Assembly (NCBI GenBank): GCA_964524895.1
Contig: CAZGFG010000005.1
Span: 5,976 to 69,975 of the forward strand
From: an uncultured Gammaproteobacteria bacterium
Lineage (GTDB): Bacteria > Patescibacteriota > Microgenomatia > Daviesbacterales > UBA10151
Reading direction: 5' to 3'
DNA: 64,000 nucleotides
The stretch's first letter is position 1. Every line of letters begins with the position of its first letter. Both the position numbers and the translations under genes were made by a program. This document shows, piece by piece, positions 10,353-34,548 of this stretch. The notes beneath the pieces are model-generated. The model had not been told where the DNA came from and did not search any database. It saw nothing but the letters and a program-made list of their open reading frames with translations.

Positions 10353-11228
10353 ATGCCAAGACCTAAAAAAATAACTTCAGAATCAATACCTCAGCAAATA
10401 CCTAATCCTCAACCCAGTCAAGTCACACCCAATAAAAAGATTAAGGTTTTATTCTTTTCTGTTTGTAACTCTTCAATTTCAAACCCACATCTTATTCAAG
10501 CTAAAGATCAAGTTTTAGGAAAAGATGACGACTTAATTTACCTTGTTATTCACACTTATGGGGGAGATGCCTATTCAGCAGTCAGAATTATGAGAATACT
10601 TCAAAAAAGATTTAAAAAAATAGCTGTAGTAGTACCGGATATGGCTATTAGTGCGGGAACTTTAATGGCACTAGGGAGTGATGAAATATGGATGGATCAA
10701 GAATCAAGATTAGGACCACTAGATCTTCCAATAGAGCATCCTTCAGATGGTAGTAGAATATCGTCCTTAGATGTTACTAACACATTAACTAACTTAGCAT
10801 CATTTTATACATCTACAGCTTTAAATTTATATACTAGAATCAGAGATGAGATTGGTCTTAAAAAATCAGAAGCTGCAAAACTAGCATTTAGTTCTACGGC
10901 AGAAATAGTAGAGCCGGTTGCTAGACAGATTGACCCCTATCATCTACAGAAAAGTTTTCGAGAAATTAAAATCGCTCTTTATTACGCTATTGATTTATTA
11001 ACTGCTAGAATGATGAAGACTAACTTCCCTCAAGCAATGAAAACAAGCCGATCTCTGGTAAATGATTATCCGGCACATGAGTACGCAATTTTTAGAGATG
11101 AAGCTAAAGACTTACTAAATTTGAACATTAATCACATTGAAAATTTAACAGAATGGTCTACCATTAAACCAGAATTTGATAGATTACTTAGTAGTAAGAG
11201 AGATGCTATTATATTTAAGGAGCTATAA
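10353..11228 (+). CDS. ClpP/SppA-fold serine peptidase (S49/'serine dehydrogenase proteinase'-like)
   Basis: YGGDAYSAVRIMRILQ... AISAGTLMALGSDEIWMDQESRLGPLD resembles the Clp/crotonase-fold protease core (Ser nucleophile in GxSAG-like context). Confidence 0.55.
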   Translation: MPRPKKITSESIPQQIPNPQPSQVTPNKKIKVLFFSVCNSSISNPHLIQAKDQVLGKDDDLIYLVIHTYGGDAYSAVRIMRILQKRFKKIAVVVPDMAISAGTLMALGSDEIWMDQESRLGPLDLPIEHPSDGSRISSLDVTNTLTNLASFYTSTALNLYTRIRDEIGLKKSEAAKLAFSSTAEIVEPVARQIDPYHLQKSFREIKIALYYAIDLLTARMMKTNFPQAMKTSRSLVNDYPAHEYAIFRDEAKDLLNLNINHIENLTEWSTIKPEFDRLLSSKRDAIIFKEL

Positions 11229-11231
11229 TTT

Positions 11232-11474
11232 ATGCCAAATGATCCAATTAAAAAAGATAAAAATGAAAAAGAAGACGTTAAAGATACAAAGGTAAAAGTT
11301 AGCGAAATTATAGATTTTGGACAAAAAATCAGCAATGATTGGTTAGAGGCTGAAACCCAACGAAAAGTTCAGGTGAAACAACAGAAACAGCAAAACAAAA
11401 ACCAAGATCAGGAACCAGAGGAGGAAGAACAACCTCCAGTAGTCCAGAACCCCCGTTCATATAATTATTACTAA
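11232..11474 (+). CDS. Small highly charged protein (80 aa): K/E-rich N-terminus, acidic tract EPEEEEQPP, C-terminal ...RSYNYY
   Basis: Start lies 3 nt after the protease stop (tight coupling). Low-complexity charged sequence, a candidate substrate/precursor peptide for the downstream ATP-grasp protein (inference). Confidence 0.35.
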   Translation: MPNDPIKKDKNEKEDVKDTKVKVSEIIDFGQKISNDWLEAETQRKVQVKQQKQQNKNQDQEPEEEEQPPVVQNPRSYNYY

Positions 11475-11528
11475 ATTAATTCCTGGTTACTTCGTTAAAG
11501 TTGAGTAATTCCCATATTAATCCTATAG

Positions 11529-11557
11529 TTGACGGTTGTTGGCAATCATGTTATACT
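11529..11557 (+). promoter_or_regulatory. Sigma70-like promoter (TTGACG-17 nt-TATACT)
   Basis: -35 TTGACG at ~11529-11534, 17-nt spacer, -10 TATACT at ~11552-11557, upstream of the 11724 gene leader. Confidence 0.4.
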
Positions 11558-11681
11558 AAAAAAAGTTATGAATATTAACTACAGCAATAATTATTGGTTT
11601 TTCTTTCATCCTCTCCAAAGGGAGGCTGTGCTGTAATGCTTAAATAAGCAAAACAGTTTTACAAGGAAAACCTTGTTACAG

Positions 11682-11705
11682 ACCTCCTGAAAGGGAGGTT
11701 TTTTG
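11682..11705 (+). terminator. Intrinsic-terminator-like hairpin (ACCTCC-TGAAAG-GGAGGT + TTTTTT) in the leader, 18 nt before the start codon: candidate attenuator
   Basis: 6-bp GC-rich stem plus U-tract. The upstream GGGAGG at ~11620-11625 could pair with the terminator 5' arm as an antiterminator; a second hairpin ACAAGG-AAAA-CCTTGT lies at ~11661-11676. Confidence 0.4.
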
Positions 11706-11723
11706 TGGTTAAAAAGGAAAAAT

Positions 11724-14258
11724 ATGAGCAAAGAAATTGAAAACGGAAATCTAAATATTGAATCAAACGGAATAGTGGCTACTAATAGTGCTGAAAAACG
11801 CATAGGGTTAGTTGCTTCTGTTCAAAAGTTAGGTGATTTAGTAGAATTTATAGAAGGAGGAGAAAATGCGCCCGGAGCTTTAGCAACCGAGGATGCTCTA
11901 TTTGCCAACATTCCACCCCTCAGCTTTCTCGCGGATGGATCTATTAAGAATGCCAGAGGTGGTAAACTTGTCAAAAACTCAGGTCTTGAAGCCCGTTTTG
12001 CCTCATTGTCCCCAAAGCAAATAGATCAGATTCAAACCCAAATTGACCTGTTTCTAAACACCGTATCAGTTATTGGTAATCTTGCTTCCGCCAGGCGATT
12101 AGAACCTTACTTACCAGTTGTGCTTCCCAGTACTCAAGCAGGATTTAAAACTTTAAGGAAGATCGCTGAGCAATATACCAAAGCAATACCTATTCCTGAA
12201 GGAAATAGCTTAGGAGATATTCCTGCTACGTTGAAAGCATTAACAAATCTTGATGAACAATTAAAAGCTACTGGTTTAAAAGACCCGGCAGTTATTGAAG
12301 CTTTAAGTGCCTCTGCAAAACAACAAGCAGAAGTTAGATTGGAAAAATCAAAAATAGATGGTTCCAAACAGGTTGCTCAAATTAGGGCAGAACTAGCAGA
12401 GCAGAAGATTTATGATTTGAAAAGAGAGCTTGTGGAAGAACCGGGCCCACGCATATTTTCAAGGTATCAAGCATTGGTAGATCAGATTATTGCGGATGCC
12501 ACCAAACTTAACAATGATGAGTTATCAGTTGTTCGCGGGGTAGGAATCCCGAAAATTTCAGATGAACGTTCTATATATAAATTTGCTGGAAATAAATTAC
12601 GAAAGCAATTAGAGGATGAGGTTACAGATGATGAGATTATGCCAGTCCTTACTAAAGCGTTTATCAAGGAAATACTCTCCAGCAGAGCACCAGAAGTAAT
12701 AGATACTGCTATAACACAACTTGGAGTTGAAAGAGAGGCCGTACTGAAAGACCCTAACAAGCTTGAACAATTAGAAGGTGAGATAATTGCTCGTGGATTA
12801 GAATTTCTAATCGCTAGCTCACTAGAGGAATCAAATACAGAAAAAGCACTTACCATAACAGACGCTGAGCGAAAAAGGCTGAGGGAAGCTTCACTAGCTT
12901 TATTTAGAGAACAAGAGTTAAACAGAAGTGCCTCATCTTCAGAGACTAGGTTGCTTTTGGATCAAAGTATTGAAACTCCTAACACTGCTAGTTTAGGTGC
13001 GATAAGTTTGAGAAGAGATATTAAATCTACACTAGGCCCATTCCAAATTTATCCAGAATATAAGACTACTTACCCACCTGTTGTCCTACAGGCTTTGGGG
13101 AATTTATATGCAGAATATAACCAGGCTTTTCGTCGCTTGGTGGCAGCTAATAGAGAGTATGCAACAGATTATCAATATTGTCTGACACCGGATGGAACTC
13201 CAATTAACAGCTTCATTCAAATTGACATGGTTGGATTACCAACTGGGTTTTTAGAGCAAGCAACAACTTTAAGAGAAGAAGATATAAGCGAAGCTTTAAG
13301 AGGTAGGATCTTTGAAATAGAAAATTCTATAGCAATGTACTCGCTTCTAGAGTACTTCTTTTCAGATGGAACTCAAGATACTCTTTTTAAGAGGCAATTC
13401 CGTGCTGGTTTAGATAATATAAGGCGAAGGTACGGACGACCAATTGCTTTACTCGCTGTTACTGACCAAAAATATCAGGCAATGAGAGAGACTGAATTCG
13501 GTAAAAGAGATTGTGAGCCATTAACTGATGGTGAGGTGAGGGAGTATTCAGGATTTGATAAGTTTTTCTCTCCGGAGGAGTTCAAAAAATATTTAGAGGA
13601 CAATGGTGGTAACTCTGATTATCTTTTATACGTTCGTTCTTCTGACCCTGTAGCTAAAATGAAAAGGCCAGAGTTGCTAGTGAGGGAGCCGCTATTAGCA
13701 GATGATGAAATGAGAAGAATAATTAAAGCTAATGCTCTCACTTTTAACATTGATAACCCCAACTTGCCAATTGGAGATAGCAGGCGTATAAATGATACAA
13801 AGGAATACCTTGGGGCAATGGGTATGGCTTTCCCAGTCTATTATGGTGAAGATTTAACCTCTGAAGAATTTGGCTCCTATTTAAGATCACAAGGTGTAGA
13901 TCCATCAAGAGTTAGATCTGGAGAGTTACTATTGCGTGCTAAACCGATGAAAGGAACTTATGGAGGATATGGTCATTTTCGTGGTACCTTAGGAGATTCA
14001 AGATTTAGACGAGAACTACGAAATGCTCTATTAAAAAGAGGCTCGTACATTGTCCAACCTGAATTACAAAATCCTACGATAACAAATCAGGATGACGGGC
14101 GCTCCTATATGTATATAGATAGGGTCTTTTTCTCCAACGATGGTCAGAATTACAGGTTTATGGGTGGTGAAAGAACACTAATGCCTATTGATTCTAATGA
14201 GGCCCAAAATAATAGGGTTCACGGAAATAGTTCCTCAGTGTATGCTGAGATAATATAA
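11724..14258 (+). CDS. Large protein (~845 aa) with C-terminal ATP-grasp-like ligase domain and an uncharacterised ~500-aa N-terminal region
   Basis: C-terminal LLLRAKPMKGTYGGYGHF (KPxxGxxGxG-type ATP-grasp P-loop-like), YIVQPELQ (xVQE-type motif) and MYIDRVFF. Track start 11703 is TTG; the in-frame ATG at 11724 is preferred. Confidence 0.5.
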   Translation: MSKEIENGNLNIESNGIVATNSAEKRIGLVASVQKLGDLVEFIEGGENAPGALATEDALFANIPPLSFLADGSIKNARGGKLVKNSGLEARFASLSPKQIDQIQTQIDLFLNTVSVIGNLASARRLEPYLPVVLPSTQAGFKTLRKIAEQYTKAIPIPEGNSLGDIPATLKALTNLDEQLKATGLKDPAVIEALSASAKQQAEVRLEKSKIDGSKQVAQIRAELAEQKIYDLKRELVEEPGPRIFSRYQALVDQIIADATKLNNDELSVVRGVGIPKISDERSIYKFAGNKLRKQLEDEVTDDEIMPVLTKAFIKEILSSRAPEVIDTAITQLGVEREAVLKDPNKLEQLEGEIIARGLEFLIASSLEESNTEKALTITDAERKRLREASLALFREQELNRSASSSETRLLLDQSIETPNTASLGAISLRRDIKSTLGPFQIYPEYKTTYPPVVLQALGNLYAEYNQAFRRLVAANREYATDYQYCLTPDGTPINSFIQIDMVGLPTGFLEQATTLREEDISEALRGRIFEIENSIAMYSLLEYFFSDGTQDTLFKRQFRAGLDNIRRRYGRPIALLAVTDQKYQAMRETEFGKRDCEPLTDGEVREYSGFDKFFSPEEFKKYLEDNGGNSDYLLYVRSSDPVAKMKRPELLVREPLLADDEMRRIIKANALTFNIDNPNLPIGDSRRINDTKEYLGAMGMAFPVYYGEDLTSEEFGSYLRSQGVDPSRVRSGELLLRAKPMKGTYGGYGHFRGTLGDSRFRRELRNALLKRGSYIVQPELQNPTITNQDDGRSYMYIDRVFFSNDGQNYRFMGGERTLMPIDSNEAQNNRVHGNSSSVYAEII

Positions 14259-14267
14259 AATGAAACT

Positions 14268-15338
14268 ATGTTAAATAAAATTATAGCTTTAACCAAAGAA
14301 TTTATTTCTATTAAATCGAACTCTGAAGATACATCCGAGTTAGATAAGATGTTAGGAATTGCTTTATCAAACTTAAAGGAGTTTACTATTGAGCGATTTG
14401 AAAATAAAGGTGTTAAGAGCGCCTTAGTTTACAATGCTAAAAAAAGACCAAAAAAATTTAGGATTATACTTAATGGACATTTAGATGTAGTTCCAGGTAA
14501 GGACTATCAATATTTGCCAAAAATTAAAGGTGATAAGCTTTATGGAGTTGGGTCAATGGACATGAAGGCCAGTGTTGCTTGTCTTATTATGGTCTTCAAA
14601 GAAGTAGCAAACAAAGTTGATTATCCGCTTGCTCTGCAATTGGTTACCGATGAGGAAATAGGAGGTTTTAATGGCACAAAATATCAAGTAGAAAAGGGTG
14701 TAAAAGCAGATTTTGTAATCGCTGGTGAAAGCACTGGTCTTCAGATTGCAAATAGGGCGAAAGGGATTTTACAAGTAAAGATTTCTACTAAGGGTAAAAC
14801 TGCTCATGGAGCCTATCCATGGAGAGGAGTAAACGCAATTTGGAAAATGAACCAATTTCTCAACTCATTATCAAAACAGTATCCAATTCCTTCTCAACAA
14901 GAATGGGTAACAACTGTTAATTTGAGTAAGATCGAAACAACAAATAAGTCTTTTAATAAGATTCCGGATGACTGTGAAATCTTGCTTGATATTCGATATA
15001 TTCCAGAGGAAGCAGATACTATAGTTAATGATATAAAAGAACTGCTACCCAAAGGGTTTAAGTTGGATATTGTCGAAAAAGAGCCGGCTTTGTTTGTTGA
15101 TGAAAATAACCAATACCTAAAAACACTTCAGAGTGTGGCTGAACAGGTTACCAAGAACAAGGTGCGCTTTTATGGTGCGCAGGGTTCTTCTGACGCTAGA
15201 CATTTTACCAGAGTAGGTACTGATGGAATTGAATTCGGACCAATAGGTGAGAATATTGGAAGTGATGATGAATGTGTAAGCATAAAAAGTTTGGAGCAAT
15301 ATTATCAGACCCTTAAAAACTTTCTATTAGCAATATAA
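14268..15338 (+). CDS. M20 family metallopeptidase (ArgE/DapE/acetylornithine deacetylase-like)
   Basis: ILNGHLDVVPG (HxD metal site), GVGSMDMKASVACLIMVF, LVTDEEIGG (metal-binding EE). Start lies 9 nt after the upstream stop. Confidence 0.8.
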   Translation: MLNKIIALTKEFISIKSNSEDTSELDKMLGIALSNLKEFTIERFENKGVKSALVYNAKKRPKKFRIILNGHLDVVPGKDYQYLPKIKGDKLYGVGSMDMKASVACLIMVFKEVANKVDYPLALQLVTDEEIGGFNGTKYQVEKGVKADFVIAGESTGLQIANRAKGILQVKISTKGKTAHGAYPWRGVNAIWKMNQFLNSLSKQYPIPSQQEWVTTVNLSKIETTNKSFNKIPDDCEILLDIRYIPEEADTIVNDIKELLPKGFKLDIVEKEPALFVDENNQYLKTLQSVAEQVTKNKVRFYGAQGSSDARHFTRVGTDGIEFGPIGENIGSDDECVSIKSLEQYYQTLKNFLLAI

Positions 15339-15593: not shown

Positions 15594-15836
15594 ATGCCTT
15601 TCTTTGTGTATATCTTAGAATGCTCGGATAAAAGCTATTATGCCGGTTGTACTAATAATTTAGAACACCGCCTAAAACAGCATAATGACTCTAAATGGGG
15701 TGCTCACTACACTAAAATCCGAAGACCCGTGATTCTTAAATATTTTGAAAACTACCCAACTCTTTCAGAAGCCAGAAGAAGGGAGTCTGAAATTAAAGGT
15801 TGGAGAAGAGAAAAGAAAGAAGCCCTTTGGAAATAG
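15594..15836 (+). CDS. GIY-YIG nuclease superfamily protein (UPF0213/YhbQ-like)
   Basis: MPFFVYILECSDKSYYAGCTNNLEHRLKQHN matches the GIY-(x10)-YIG signature; 80 aa. Confidence 0.8.
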   Translation: MPFFVYILECSDKSYYAGCTNNLEHRLKQHNDSKWGAHYTKIRRPVILKYFENYPTLSEARRRESEIKGWRREKKEALWK

Positions 15837-15968
15837 TGCCAACCTAGACCACTCTTCGAGTTCCTCGAATCTGAATGATCTCGGAATCGAAGACCCCCCA
15901 GGTGTGATAGGATGACACATAAACCTATAGTTTGTAATACCACCTAGAGACTGCTATAATAAAGTTCT

Positions 15969-16505
15969 ATGCTCGAACGCCTAGATGCTTACAAAACTTA
16001 CCAATCTGACAATATATACCACGCCTTTCGATACCTGGTGGAAAATGTAACAATTGACACCCCCAGATTAAGCCAAGAGTTAGCAACTTTCCCAGGAGGT
16101 AGAGAAAATACATATAGATTACTGCTGGGAGTTTTATTGGCTGATGGAAATGTAGCCTGGTCTCCTGATGCTCCTTCACATCCTGCAATACTGCAGGCTG
16201 AAGGAAAAGGCCGCGGAGATACTTTAGCCTACTTCCAGATCGGCTACCCTGTTTGCCCGGGTCCAAGCAAAATAATCATTACAGGCTTGGATGAAGTAGG
16301 GACAAAAGCATTAACCGAATATATAGTAGCAGCTCGTCCTGACCCTAGGAGTTCATTATTCGTACAGCAAGTAGACAATCTGCCGGACGTAGGTCAGATA
16401 AGAAAAATCTTTCAAGGTACAGTAAGGCGTTATGAATTTTTAGAAAATCTAAGAAGAGGTGCGCCAATACTTGCAGCAAGGATTTACCATTTTATGCCTA
16501 TATAG
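15969..16505 (+). CDS. Hypothetical protein (178 aa) in a locally GC-enriched segment
   Basis: ATG start, TATAAT 8 nt upstream; ~45% GC versus ~37% in the surroundings; no recognisable motif. Confidence 0.4.
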   Translation: MLERLDAYKTYQSDNIYHAFRYLVENVTIDTPRLSQELATFPGGRENTYRLLLGVLLADGNVAWSPDAPSHPAILQAEGKGRGDTLAYFQIGYPVCPGPSKIIITGLDEVGTKALTEYIVAARPDPRSSLFVQQVDNLPDVGQIRKIFQGTVRRYEFLENLRRGAPILAARIYHFMPI

Positions 16506-33495: not shown

Positions 33496-34548
33496 ATGCA
33501 GGATAAGCTTAACAGTATCCAAAGCAATTATTTGGAAAAAATCAACCAGGCCAAGTCTTTAAAAGAGCTCGACAATCTCTTTTTGGCTTTATTTGGCAAA
33601 AGCGGTGAGCTAGCTTTACTCCCAAAGGATTTCGCCTCGTTACAAAAAGAAGAATTGAAAAAGGTCGGACCCCTTTTTAATCAAGTTAAGCAAAAACTGG
33701 AGCAGGCTATAGAGGAGCGGCGTCAAGCGGTCAAAGAGCAAAGTTACCAAAAACTGCCTGATGAGCCGTTGGACTTACAGCCTACAGAAATAAAAAAACG
33801 CCAAGGTCATCTGCATCCGATTACTGAATTTGAGCAAGAAATAATTGAGTTATTCCAAAAATTGGGATTTTCCCAATTTGCCGCCCCTCATATTGACACC
33901 GATGAATATAATTTCGAACTTTTGAATATCCCCAAAGGCCATCCAGCCAGAGATCTCTGGGACACCCTTTATATAGAGACAAATAGCAAAAATCCAAGCT
34001 CAAGAGTCAGCCCGGGAGAACTGCTTCTAAGAACCCACACCTCTAATGCCCAGGTAAGGGCAATGAGACAACTGGGAACTCCACTTCGAGTGATGATTTT
34101 AGACCGTTGTTTTAGATATGAAAATTTGGACGCCAGGCATGAGCATACATTTGAACAATTCGAGCTTATTTACATTGACAAAGGGGTGAATATGGCCAAT
34201 TTACAATACCTTTCCGAATACTTTTTTAAAGCCATTTTGGGAAAAGATATCAAAGCCCGCTTAAGGCCAAAATATTTCCCTTTTGTTGAACCCGGAGCCG
34301 GTGTAGACGGATTGTGCATTTTCTGCAAGGGGAAGGGATGTAAAGTCTGCAGTGGGGTGGGGTGGTTAGAGTTAGCCGGGGCAGGCATGATTCACCCTCA
34401 AGTTTTGAGAAACGGGGGAATTGACCCAAATGTTTATACCGGAATTGCCTGGGGCTTTGGGCCGGAAAGAATGGCCATGTTAAGACACGGAATTGAAGAT
34501 ATCCGTTTGTTCAAAAGCGGGGATTTAAGGTTTTTGGGGGGATTCTAA
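33496..34548 (+). CDS. pheS: Phenylalanine--tRNA ligase alpha subunit
   Basis: FPFVEPGAGVDG...WLELAGAGMIHPQVL...GIAWGFGPERMAMLRHGIEDIRLF. Contains an inserted Cys4 knuckle, LCIFCKGKGCKVCSG. Confidence 0.9.
   Translation: MQDKLNSIQSNYLEKINQAKSLKELDNLFLALFGKSGELALLPKDFASLQKEELKKVGPLFNQVKQKLEQAIEERRQAVKEQSYQKLPDEPLDLQPTEIKKRQGHLHPITEFEQEIIELFQKLGFSQFAAPHIDTDEYNFELLNIPKGHPARDLWDTLYIETNSKNPSSRVSPGELLLRTHTSNAQVRAMRQLGTPLRVMILDRCFRYENLDARHEHTFEQFELIYIDKGVNMANLQYLSEYFFKAILGKDIKARLRPKYFPFVEPGAGVDGLCIFCKGKGCKVCSGVGWLELAGAGMIHPQVLRNGGIDPNVYTGIAWGFGPERMAMLRHGIEDIRLFKSGDLRFLGGF

Follow-up and report, generated by a model that had tools for sequence, protein, structure and literature searches.

An operon of two genes, encoding an ATP-grasp ligase and an M20 metallo-deacylase, was analysed in a 64,000-nt stretch of contig CAZGFG010000005.1 (the whole of which is called the window below) from a bacterium of the candidate phyla radiation (CPR, or Patescibacteria). 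The operon is preceded by what is, on in silico evidence, very probably a ribosome-mediated attenuator with aromatic regulatory codons. Our overall reading, to which we give a probability of about 0.6, is that the pair is a module of two enzymes, one ligating and one hydrolysing an amide, that is induced when aromatic amino acids run short. Such a ligase/deacylase operon under aromatic attenuation is previously unannotated, nearly restricted to CPR bacteria, and built from known kinds of parts.

The ligase and M20 genes lie downstream of two others on the same (+) strand, which encode a ClpP-fold serine protease (291 aa) and a small protein (80 aa). A check of the open reading frames (ORFs) found all four where the original prediction had placed them (Table 1), with 3 nt between the first two and 9 nt between the ligase gene (844 aa) and the M20 gene (356 aa); the ligase starts at an ATG at 11724, and its homologues use the same ATG. 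That prediction had read the four genes as a single unit, a peptide-tailing, carrier-protein or RiPP (ribosomally synthesized and post-translationally modified peptide) system acting on the 80-aa protein with the help of the protease, and had named conservation of the small ORF and of the gene order as a check on this idea. In 88 unique related ligase loci, screened by tblastn, neither was kept with the ligase: no match to the protease was found in any of them, and the protease and 80-aa ORF were present in 0/88. Even in L008, from a closely related Daviesbacteria genome whose leader peptide is identical, the genes upstream are unrelated. The M20 gene was the only recurrent neighbour of the ligase in the 88 loci. 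Among the 58 loci that were informative, having enough downstream sequence, it lay on the same strand within 300 nt downstream in 51 and one gene further in 4, and it was absent from 3. In conclusion, the region very probably consists of two independent modules that merely abut, with the ligase and M20 genes as the conserved operon, and the reading as a peptide-tailing operon arose from an accidental adjacency of genes.

The promoter and the attenuator-like leader that had been claimed upstream of the ligase were both recovered, as parts of a full leader-peptide attenuator; promoter and terminator both lie within the 249-nt gap that precedes the ligase gene. The promoter is the best promoter-like site between 10000 and 15700 (10 of 12 positions match); its -10 element is of the extended type and is conserved in an alignment of relatives. 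The terminator is likewise the best in the region. The leader ORF is conserved in relatives, where indels are multiples of 3, and it is unique in the window as an aromatic-rich ORF with a following T-run; a search of the rest of the window, including the region before pheST at 33496, gave no second aromatic leader. The aromatic codons, YWFFFH (11592-11609), directly abut region 1 of the attenuator. Region 2 pairs with region 1 in the 1:2 hairpin and doubles as the 5' arm of the antiterminator, while region 3 (ACAGACCTCC) serves both structures, as 3' arm in the antiterminator and as 5' arm in the terminator. It was observed that the leader ATG stands only about 10 nt past the -10 hexamer and has no Shine-Dalgarno sequence (window 11552-11570), with a similar spacing in L007 and L010; given this short distance, translation of the leader peptide probably starts on a transcript that is almost leaderless.

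The leader RNA folded better than shuffled sequences (z = -4.4). When the first 48 nt were masked in constrained folding, as by a ribosome on the aromatic codons, the 2:3 antiterminator formed and the terminator did not; when masking extended through the leader stop codon, the terminator formed. The switch is also present in at least 10 other loci (L001, L006, L007, L008, L010, L018, L024, L051, L059 and L087). In 7 distinct sequences the antiterminator helix was 98.6% paired, compared with 36-50% for slid controls, and 3 of its pairs were changed on both sides; the terminator was 98% paired and the 1:2 helix 90.5%. The top Rfam match of the leader was Phe_leader (RF01859), over the full length of the model, with a score of 24.5 bits that is below the gathering threshold of 55 (E 0.06), so that the leader does not rank as a member of that family.

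The link with aromatic amino acids recurs in relatives of the operon. A leader was scored as aromatic when a small ORF with at least 5 of 7 residues F, W, Y or H was present no more than 350 nt upstream of the ligase. In 72 distinct loci, 16 upstream regions contained such a leader, compared with none of the 72 reverse complements and 2% of shuffles; further loci carry clusters of W, F and Y (FFWFYFF, AWYFYF, YWHWY, FYFWFF, VWW). Trp was present in 27 of 29 leaders and accounted for 4.3% of their residues against a background of 1.0%, and Phe for 12.6% against 4.8%. Five loci that lack an aromatic leader have a gene of the TrpR family (PF01371, 68-83 bits) adjoining the operon, on its upstream side in three cases and on its downstream side in two, which suggests that repressor control replaces attenuation at these loci. 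No T-box or riboswitch was found at Rfam gathering thresholds upstream of homologues without a clear leader. One Jorgensenbacteria contig (JAZDPW010000024.1) carries two paralogous ligase-M20 operons (L102 1161-4113 and L103 2714-5311), one with a leader rich in F and Y and devoid of Trp (..LFLVYFF..), the other with a WW-containing leader devoid of Phe (MNIRYRTSVWWNSYPV), which hints that these are amino-acid-specific paralogues. A clean match of ligase clades to leader type (W versus F/Y) was considered and not retained; it was only suggestive, since most leaders mix W, F and Y.

In the Levybacteria locus L001 (3523-11632), leader, ligase and M20 genes lie between rplT and pheS-pheT, the same interval that houses the pheM leader in Escherichia coli. 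There, pheS begins 34 nt past the M20 stop codon, so the aromatic attenuator may also govern pheST in this locus. Linkage to pheST was rejected as a general trait of the operon, being seen only in L001 and L005, plus a case on the opposite strand in L015.

The original prediction had placed an ATP-grasp domain in the last 300 aa or so of the ligase. The fold was borne out by a predicted structure and a Foldseek search, and the domain proved larger, about 440 aa. A confident AlphaFold model of this domain was obtained from a 65-sequence alignment of the stand-alone domain (predicted local distance difference test, pLDDT, 94.8; predicted template-modelling score 0.93), whereas in a full-length AlphaFold2 model made with 23 sequences the C-terminal half was poor (pLDDT 68). 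The domain model matched 3n6x in Foldseek with an E-value of 3.5e-6, and its three-dimensional match is to solved ATP-grasp members of the GspS/YgiC/eukaryotic glutathione synthetase-like kind; as modelled, the C-terminal domain has the ATP-grasp fold. Its nearest structural relatives (YgiC/YjfC, glutathionylspermidine synthetase, trypanothione synthetase, glutathione synthetase and Cp1B) are acid-amine ligases for small molecules or short peptides. RimK, TTL/TTLL, LysX/ArgX and graspetide ligases are not the closest by fold; the small-molecule ligases are nearer. By analogy with these relatives, the enzyme would use ATP to activate a carboxylate by phosphorylation and then join it to an amine.

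The 844-aa protein has no match in Pfam, NCBIfam, PADLOC, PHROGs or PDB sequences, whether by phmmer or by profile, and the curated models for this fold class (Pfam GSP_synth, CP_ATPgrasp and ATP-grasp_x, and those of NCBIfam) leave it unmatched. Among 65 family members there was no true Pfam match, only a single hit to CP_ATPgrasp_2 at E 0.18. An exhaustive profile search of 1.84 billion representatives returned only 190 clusters (an approximate count, at 50% identity), with almost no weak tail. The family is therefore sharply bounded and has no sequence model. It is almost entirely confined to CPR bacteria, across which the last 440 aa or so of the window protein exist as a stand-alone protein of 430-490 aa. 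Residues invariant in the 65 sequences include K740-P741 (KPMKGTYGGYGH), Q778 (VQPE), E531/E533/N534 (FEIENS), D501, R638 and K693, and the invariant motifs also include K-P-x-K-G..G(..G) and QIDMVG; from their sequence, these are plausible nucleotide/Mg motifs.

The assignment of the fourth ORF to the M20 peptidases stood. It contains both the catalytic domain (Peptidase_M20, PF01546, 91.4 bits) and the dimerisation domain (M20_dimer, PF07687, 70.2 bits), and it matches the DapE and ArgE models below their equivalog cut-offs (DapE 188.6 versus 381; TIGR01910 DapE-ArgE 183.9 versus 217.6; ArgE 108 versus 297.7). The closest solved relative is an uncharacterised M20 protein (2rb7), followed by DapE enzymes. 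Conservation of the M20 protein exceeds that of the ligase (median identity 62% across CPR classes), and in 53 orthologues the metal and catalytic positions H71, D98, E129/E130 and E154 are invariant. The equivalent of DapE His349 is Gly331 (about 15258-15260) in 51 of the 53, so that the canonical set of five metal ligands is incomplete. A conserved Asp333 lies two residues past Gly331 and a conserved His312 lies in the motif GSSDARH; judging from the alignment, either might substitute for the absent fifth ligand. These features mark a distinct M20 subfamily, neither a standard DapE nor a standard ArgE, which by analogy would hydrolyse an amide of the N-acyl-amino-acid or dipeptide type.

These elements can be combined into the following model. 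During a shortage of charged tRNA-Trp, -Phe or -Tyr (and -His), a ribosome would stall on the YWFFFH run of the 22-codon leader and cover region 1; region 2 (GGGAGGCUGU) would then pair with region 3 (ACAGACCUCC), the terminator would be blocked, and the ligase and M20 genes would be transcribed. When supply is adequate, the ribosome would reach the leader stop codon and cover region 2, the terminator hairpin with its U-run would form, and transcription would stop. Operon expression is thus expected to rise as charged tRNA-Trp/Phe/Tyr falls. The ligase would couple a carboxylate to an amine through an acyl-phosphate, as its nearest structural relatives do, and the M20 enzyme would cleave an amide of N-acyl-amino-acid or dipeptide type. 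Together they would form and cleave an amide conjugate of an aromatic amino acid and so raise the usable intracellular Trp, Phe or Tyr, which CPR bacteria generally cannot make. We put at about even odds the proposal that the operon serves aromatic amino-acid supply. The likeliest concrete mechanism, to be taken with low confidence, would be that imported aromatic amino acids are trapped or salvaged at the expense of ATP by being built into a conjugate, from which the deacylase would release them.

Several observations weigh against induction of an amide-forming and amide-cleaving pair by aromatic starvation. By the criteria used, a clear aromatic leader is present in only about 40% of upstream regions, and a crude fold-switch test was passed by only 13 of 28 loci. 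Phe and Tyr codons are AT-rich, so the enrichment of these residues in the leaders could be partly compositional; the enrichment of Trp and His is not explained in this way. PF01371 takes in, besides TrpR, YerC/YecD-type proteins of unknown ligand. There is no obvious economy in co-inducing an ATP-consuming ligase and a hydrolase during starvation, and a plain cycle of synthesis and cleavage would be futile. Finally, in one lineage the context points to diaminopimelate (DAP)/lysine rather than aromatic metabolism: in L017 (2339-3586) and L062 (1219-2472) the ligase gene is immediately preceded or overlapped by a lysA-like gene (TIGR01048, 295.8 bits versus a cut-off of 297.9), and in L077 (178-2470) the order is lysA-dapB-ligase, stop codons abutting start codons. 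All three loci lack an aromatic leader.

This lineage is one ground for placing the pair in a protect/deprotect branch of DAP/lysine (or other amino-acid) synthesis, in which the ligase would N-acylate an intermediate in place of the acyl-CoA-dependent DapD/DapH and the M20 enzyme would act as the DapE-type deacylase. The best family matches of the M20 protein are indeed DapE models (188.6 bits), its closest named PDB relatives are DapE enzymes, and LysX/LysK offers a precedent for pairing an ATP-grasp ligase with an M20 enzyme. We consider this branch improbable: DAP genes are adjacent in only 3 of the 88 loci, all of one lineage; L017 has no M20 gene in the 700 nt downstream of its ligase; the M20 protein falls below every DapE/ArgE equivalog cut-off and misses the canonical fifth metal ligand; and neither the Trp/Phe/Tyr leaders nor the TrpR-family neighbours are explained. 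Somewhat less improbable, and still unlikely, is a synthetase/amidase pair that would set the level of a regulatory or protective conjugate (a peptide- or amino-acid-polyamine amide) in starvation or stationary phase, rather than a supply route. The closest folds (GspS, trypanothione synthetase and the peptide-spermidine ligases YgiC/YjfC) agree with it, the opposing glutathionylspermidine synthetase and amidase of E. coli are a precedent for a co-expressed ligase and hydrolase, and a gene with a spermidine-synthase domain lies near one locus (L032). Polyamine genes are not consistently linked to the operon, however, the amidase here would be an M20 enzyme and not a CHAP domain, and the presence in one genome of paralogues whose aromatic leaders differ suggests that the substrates are specific to particular amino acids and are not one global conjugate.

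The leader ORF itself (11568-11636) could be a precursor or substrate rather than a regulatory peptide, its carboxylate being capped or extended with an amine by the ligase, the M20 enzyme trimming the product and the hairpin setting the precursor-to-enzyme stoichiometry. RiPP loci typically have a small ORF just before the genes for a ligase and a peptidase, and their precursor gene is often separated from the enzyme genes by a leaky terminator. YgiC and YjfC, the closest relatives that have been characterised, are reported to ligate peptide C-termini to spermidine (Pederick et al. 2023, as cited in PMC12568646). The peptides share only the aromatic codon run, their length (16-44 aa), termini and remaining sequence varying across lineages. 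Aromatic codons 5' of region 1, together with a covarying antiterminator that competes with a terminator, are specific predictions of attenuation, and the five operons that have a TrpR-family gene and no aromatic leader suggest that a repressor takes over there. With conservation limited to the aromatic run and the RNA switch, a RiPP-like role for the leader ORF is very unlikely. Least credible of all is the four-gene tailing or carrier operon, in which the 80-aa protein would receive amino acids from the ligase at its acidic/Tyr C-terminus and be processed by the ClpP-like protease and the M20 enzyme. The same-strand, tightly spaced genes, the ATP-grasp fold and the acidic tail of the window protein had spoken for it. 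The protease and small ORF are missing even from loci of near-identical relatives; in other genomes the small ORF accompanies the protease, without conservation of the tail; between the two gene pairs stand a strong promoter and an attenuator; and the ligase fold is closer to small-molecule ligases than to RimK, TTL or LysX.

The N-terminal half of the window ligase is, in the predicted structure, an all-helical extension for which neither a structural match nor any known relatives were found. Only 22 homologues match the 844-aa protein over its full length, and they all come from CPR bacteria of the Microgenomates type (Levy- and Daviesbacteria, for example); the extension of the window type (about 400 aa) is confined to Levy-/Daviesbacteria and partly Roizmanbacteria. 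The window ligase is devoid of an in-frame segment of about 115 aa (at about 12470-12500, residues about 250-260), which is present in all other long homologues (about 950-965 aa). Other N-terminal extensions, giving total lengths of 600-1190 aa, were observed in L075, L083-L085, L098, L056 and L090, and in P0143, P0170 and P0203. A tblastn search with the window N-terminal domain found nothing in the five locus groups that carry other extensions (P0143, P0170 and P0203 lay outside this comparison), and the extensions of these five groups are therefore non-homologous to that of the window. N-terminal extension of the ligase domain thus appears to be recurrent; the one that the ligase has acquired in Levy-/Daviesbacteria is the helical extension of about 400 aa.

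The first of the two modules comprises the protease and its small partner. The claim of a ClpP-like protease was upheld by a Pfam match of the first ORF to PF01972 (E 9.3e-15; 54.8 bits, cut-off 31.3; partial coverage); the score with the NCBIfam equivalog, 67, is below the cut-off of 250. The search for homologues of the protease found 112 in CPR bacteria. In three other contigs examined, an ORF of 58-69 aa follows the protease gene within 5 nt or overlaps it. Two of these partner ORFs could be translated (those of L100 and L101), and they align with the 80-aa ORF of the window over a conserved core, ..VSEII..G..IS.DWL..E..KK. Since small ORFs linked to the protease elsewhere share this core, the small protein is real and belongs to the protease. 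It has no family match in Pfam, NCBIfam, PADLOC, PHROGs or PDB sequences. The acidic and Tyr-rich C-terminus that had been proposed as a tailing substrate is not shared: the L100 and L101 proteins have Lys-rich C-terminal tails devoid of EPEEEE...YNYY, the acidic/YNYY tail is unique to the window, and from this comparison it is a lineage-specific low-complexity tail. The genes for the protease and the small ORF (58-80 aa) form a conserved pair in CPR genomes (window 10353-11474; L100 1494-2578; L101 3501-4615) and, from their arrangement, look translationally coupled. A search of this module for defence systems with PADLOC found nothing, and its PHROG matches were to families of unknown function, plus weak ones to head-maturation proteases.

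Other surroundings of the operon were noted. In L002 (3180-7755), a groundwater relative, as well as in L003 and L004, the operon lies directly downstream of genes resembling those of type-IV secretion or conjugation; the upstream genes of the L002 type encode a TrbC/type-IV-secretion pilin, a TraC-like protein and a VirB4-type ATPase. After the M20 gene, the window contains an ORF for a stand-alone GIY-YIG nuclease of 80 aa (15594-15836), and then overlapping ORFs on both strands (15745-16505), a segment with no Rfam match.

Table 1. Coordinates of the features described (positions in the window, unless a locus is named)
Feature	Coordinates	Strand	Description
Module 1	10353-11474	+	SDH-type ClpP-fold protease and small conserved partner protein
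SDH-type ClpP-fold serine protease	10353-11228	+	PF01972; neighbouring module, outside the ligase system
80-aa partner ORF of the SDH protease	11232-11474	+	Conserved core, variable low-complexity tail
Module 2	11529-15338	+	Promoter, leader-peptide attenuator, ATP-grasp ligase, M20 deacylase
Sigma-70-type promoter of the ligase operon	11529-11557	+	TTGACG, 17-nt spacer, TG, TATACT
Leader-peptide ORF	11568-11636	+	MNINYSNNYWFFFHPLQREAVL*, 22 codons; regulatory codons Tyr-Trp-Phe-Phe-Phe-His at 11592-11609
Attenuator regions 1 and 2	11610-11629	+	1:2 hairpin; region 1 CCTCTCC (11610-11616), region 2 GGGAGGCTGT (11620-11629)
Attenuator regions 3 and 4	11678-11704	+	Region 3 ACAGACCTCCT (11678-11688); intrinsic terminator GACCTCCTGAAAGGGAGG + T6 (11681-11704)
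Ligase ORF, whole	11724-14258	+	844 aa
N-terminal extension of the ligase	11724-12935	+	Residues 1-404; all-helical in predicted structure; lineage-specific
ATP-grasp acid-amine ligase domain (predicted)	12936-14258	+	Residues 405-844; YgiC/GspS/glutathione synthetase-like fold class
M20 (DapE/ArgE-like) metallo-deacylase	14268-15338	+	356 aa; PF01546, PF07687; obligate ligase partner
TrpR-family neighbours in other loci	L056 859-1125; L075 62-394; L099 335-655; L098 4891-5214; L102 4384-4695		PF01371

With YgiC/YjfC, GspS, trypanothione synthetase, eukaryotic glutathione synthetase and Cp1B, the window ligase shares the fold and only 10-16% identity. YgiC and YjfC are peptide-spermidine ligases, according to the passage of PMC12568646 that cites Pederick et al. 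(2023), and the fungal Cp1B, of the E-64 pathway, joins epoxysuccinate to an amino acid (PMC12568646). Compared with GspS, the partner in the window is an M20 deacylase instead of a CHAP amidase; compared with the GspS/YgiC group as a whole, the family is almost entirely from CPR bacteria and the window protein adds the helical N-terminal extension. The attenuator resembles those of E. coli trp, pheA, pheST/pheM and his in having its regulatory codon run just 5' of the 1:2 hairpin, in the mutually exclusive 2:3 antiterminator and 3:4 terminator, and in a U-run directly upstream of the structural genes. It differs from them in that its leader codons mix Trp, Phe and Tyr (and His) in place of a single amino acid, in that the genes it precedes encode a ligase and a deacylase and not biosynthetic enzymes or an aminoacyl-tRNA synthetase, and in its CPR host and its leader ATG about 10 nt from the -10 box.

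The pairing of an ATP-grasp ligase with an M20 deacylase is shared with LysX/ArgX and LysK/ArgE, which act with LysW in the aminoadipate lysine/arginine pathway and in which the LysK/ArgE-type deacylase removes what the LysX/ArgX ligase attached; the original prediction had drawn this parallel. Carnosine synthase, also an ATP-grasp enzyme, makes a dipeptide that is hydrolysed by the M20 dipeptidases (carnosinases) CN1, CN2 and PepV, and is thus a precedent for a ligase and an M20 enzyme acting on one amino-acid conjugate; the carnosine enzymes are eukaryotic or from lactic acid bacteria, and they are neither in an operon nor controlled by attenuation. In the literature searched, no description was found of attenuators in CPR bacteria or of an ATP-grasp and M20 pair in these bacteria.

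Much of bacterial diversity belongs to the CPR, whose members are mostly uncultured and carry many conserved unannotated genes. A family so far called "hypothetical protein" becomes here a testable unit, with a confidently predicted fold, an M20 partner and a cue, shortage of charged Trp/Phe/Tyr-tRNA, that is read from its regulation. A ribosome-mediated attenuator of the textbook type is documented in silico in a lineage whose gene regulation is nearly unexplored, and such an attenuator can label the genes that CPR organisms use once aromatic amino acids run out. It is possible, though on balance we lean against it, that the operon represents a previously unrecognised CPR route to acquire or conserve aromatic amino acids, comprising a new ATP-grasp family and an atypical M20 enzyme devoid of the second-zinc His, with paralogues tuned to Trp or to Phe/Tyr, under the control of leader-peptide attenuators or TrpR-family repressors. 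If trapping or salvage were confirmed, it would bear on how episymbionts that are auxotrophic for amino acids obtain nutrients from their hosts, and would provide a new answer to how they cope with the scarcest of their building blocks.

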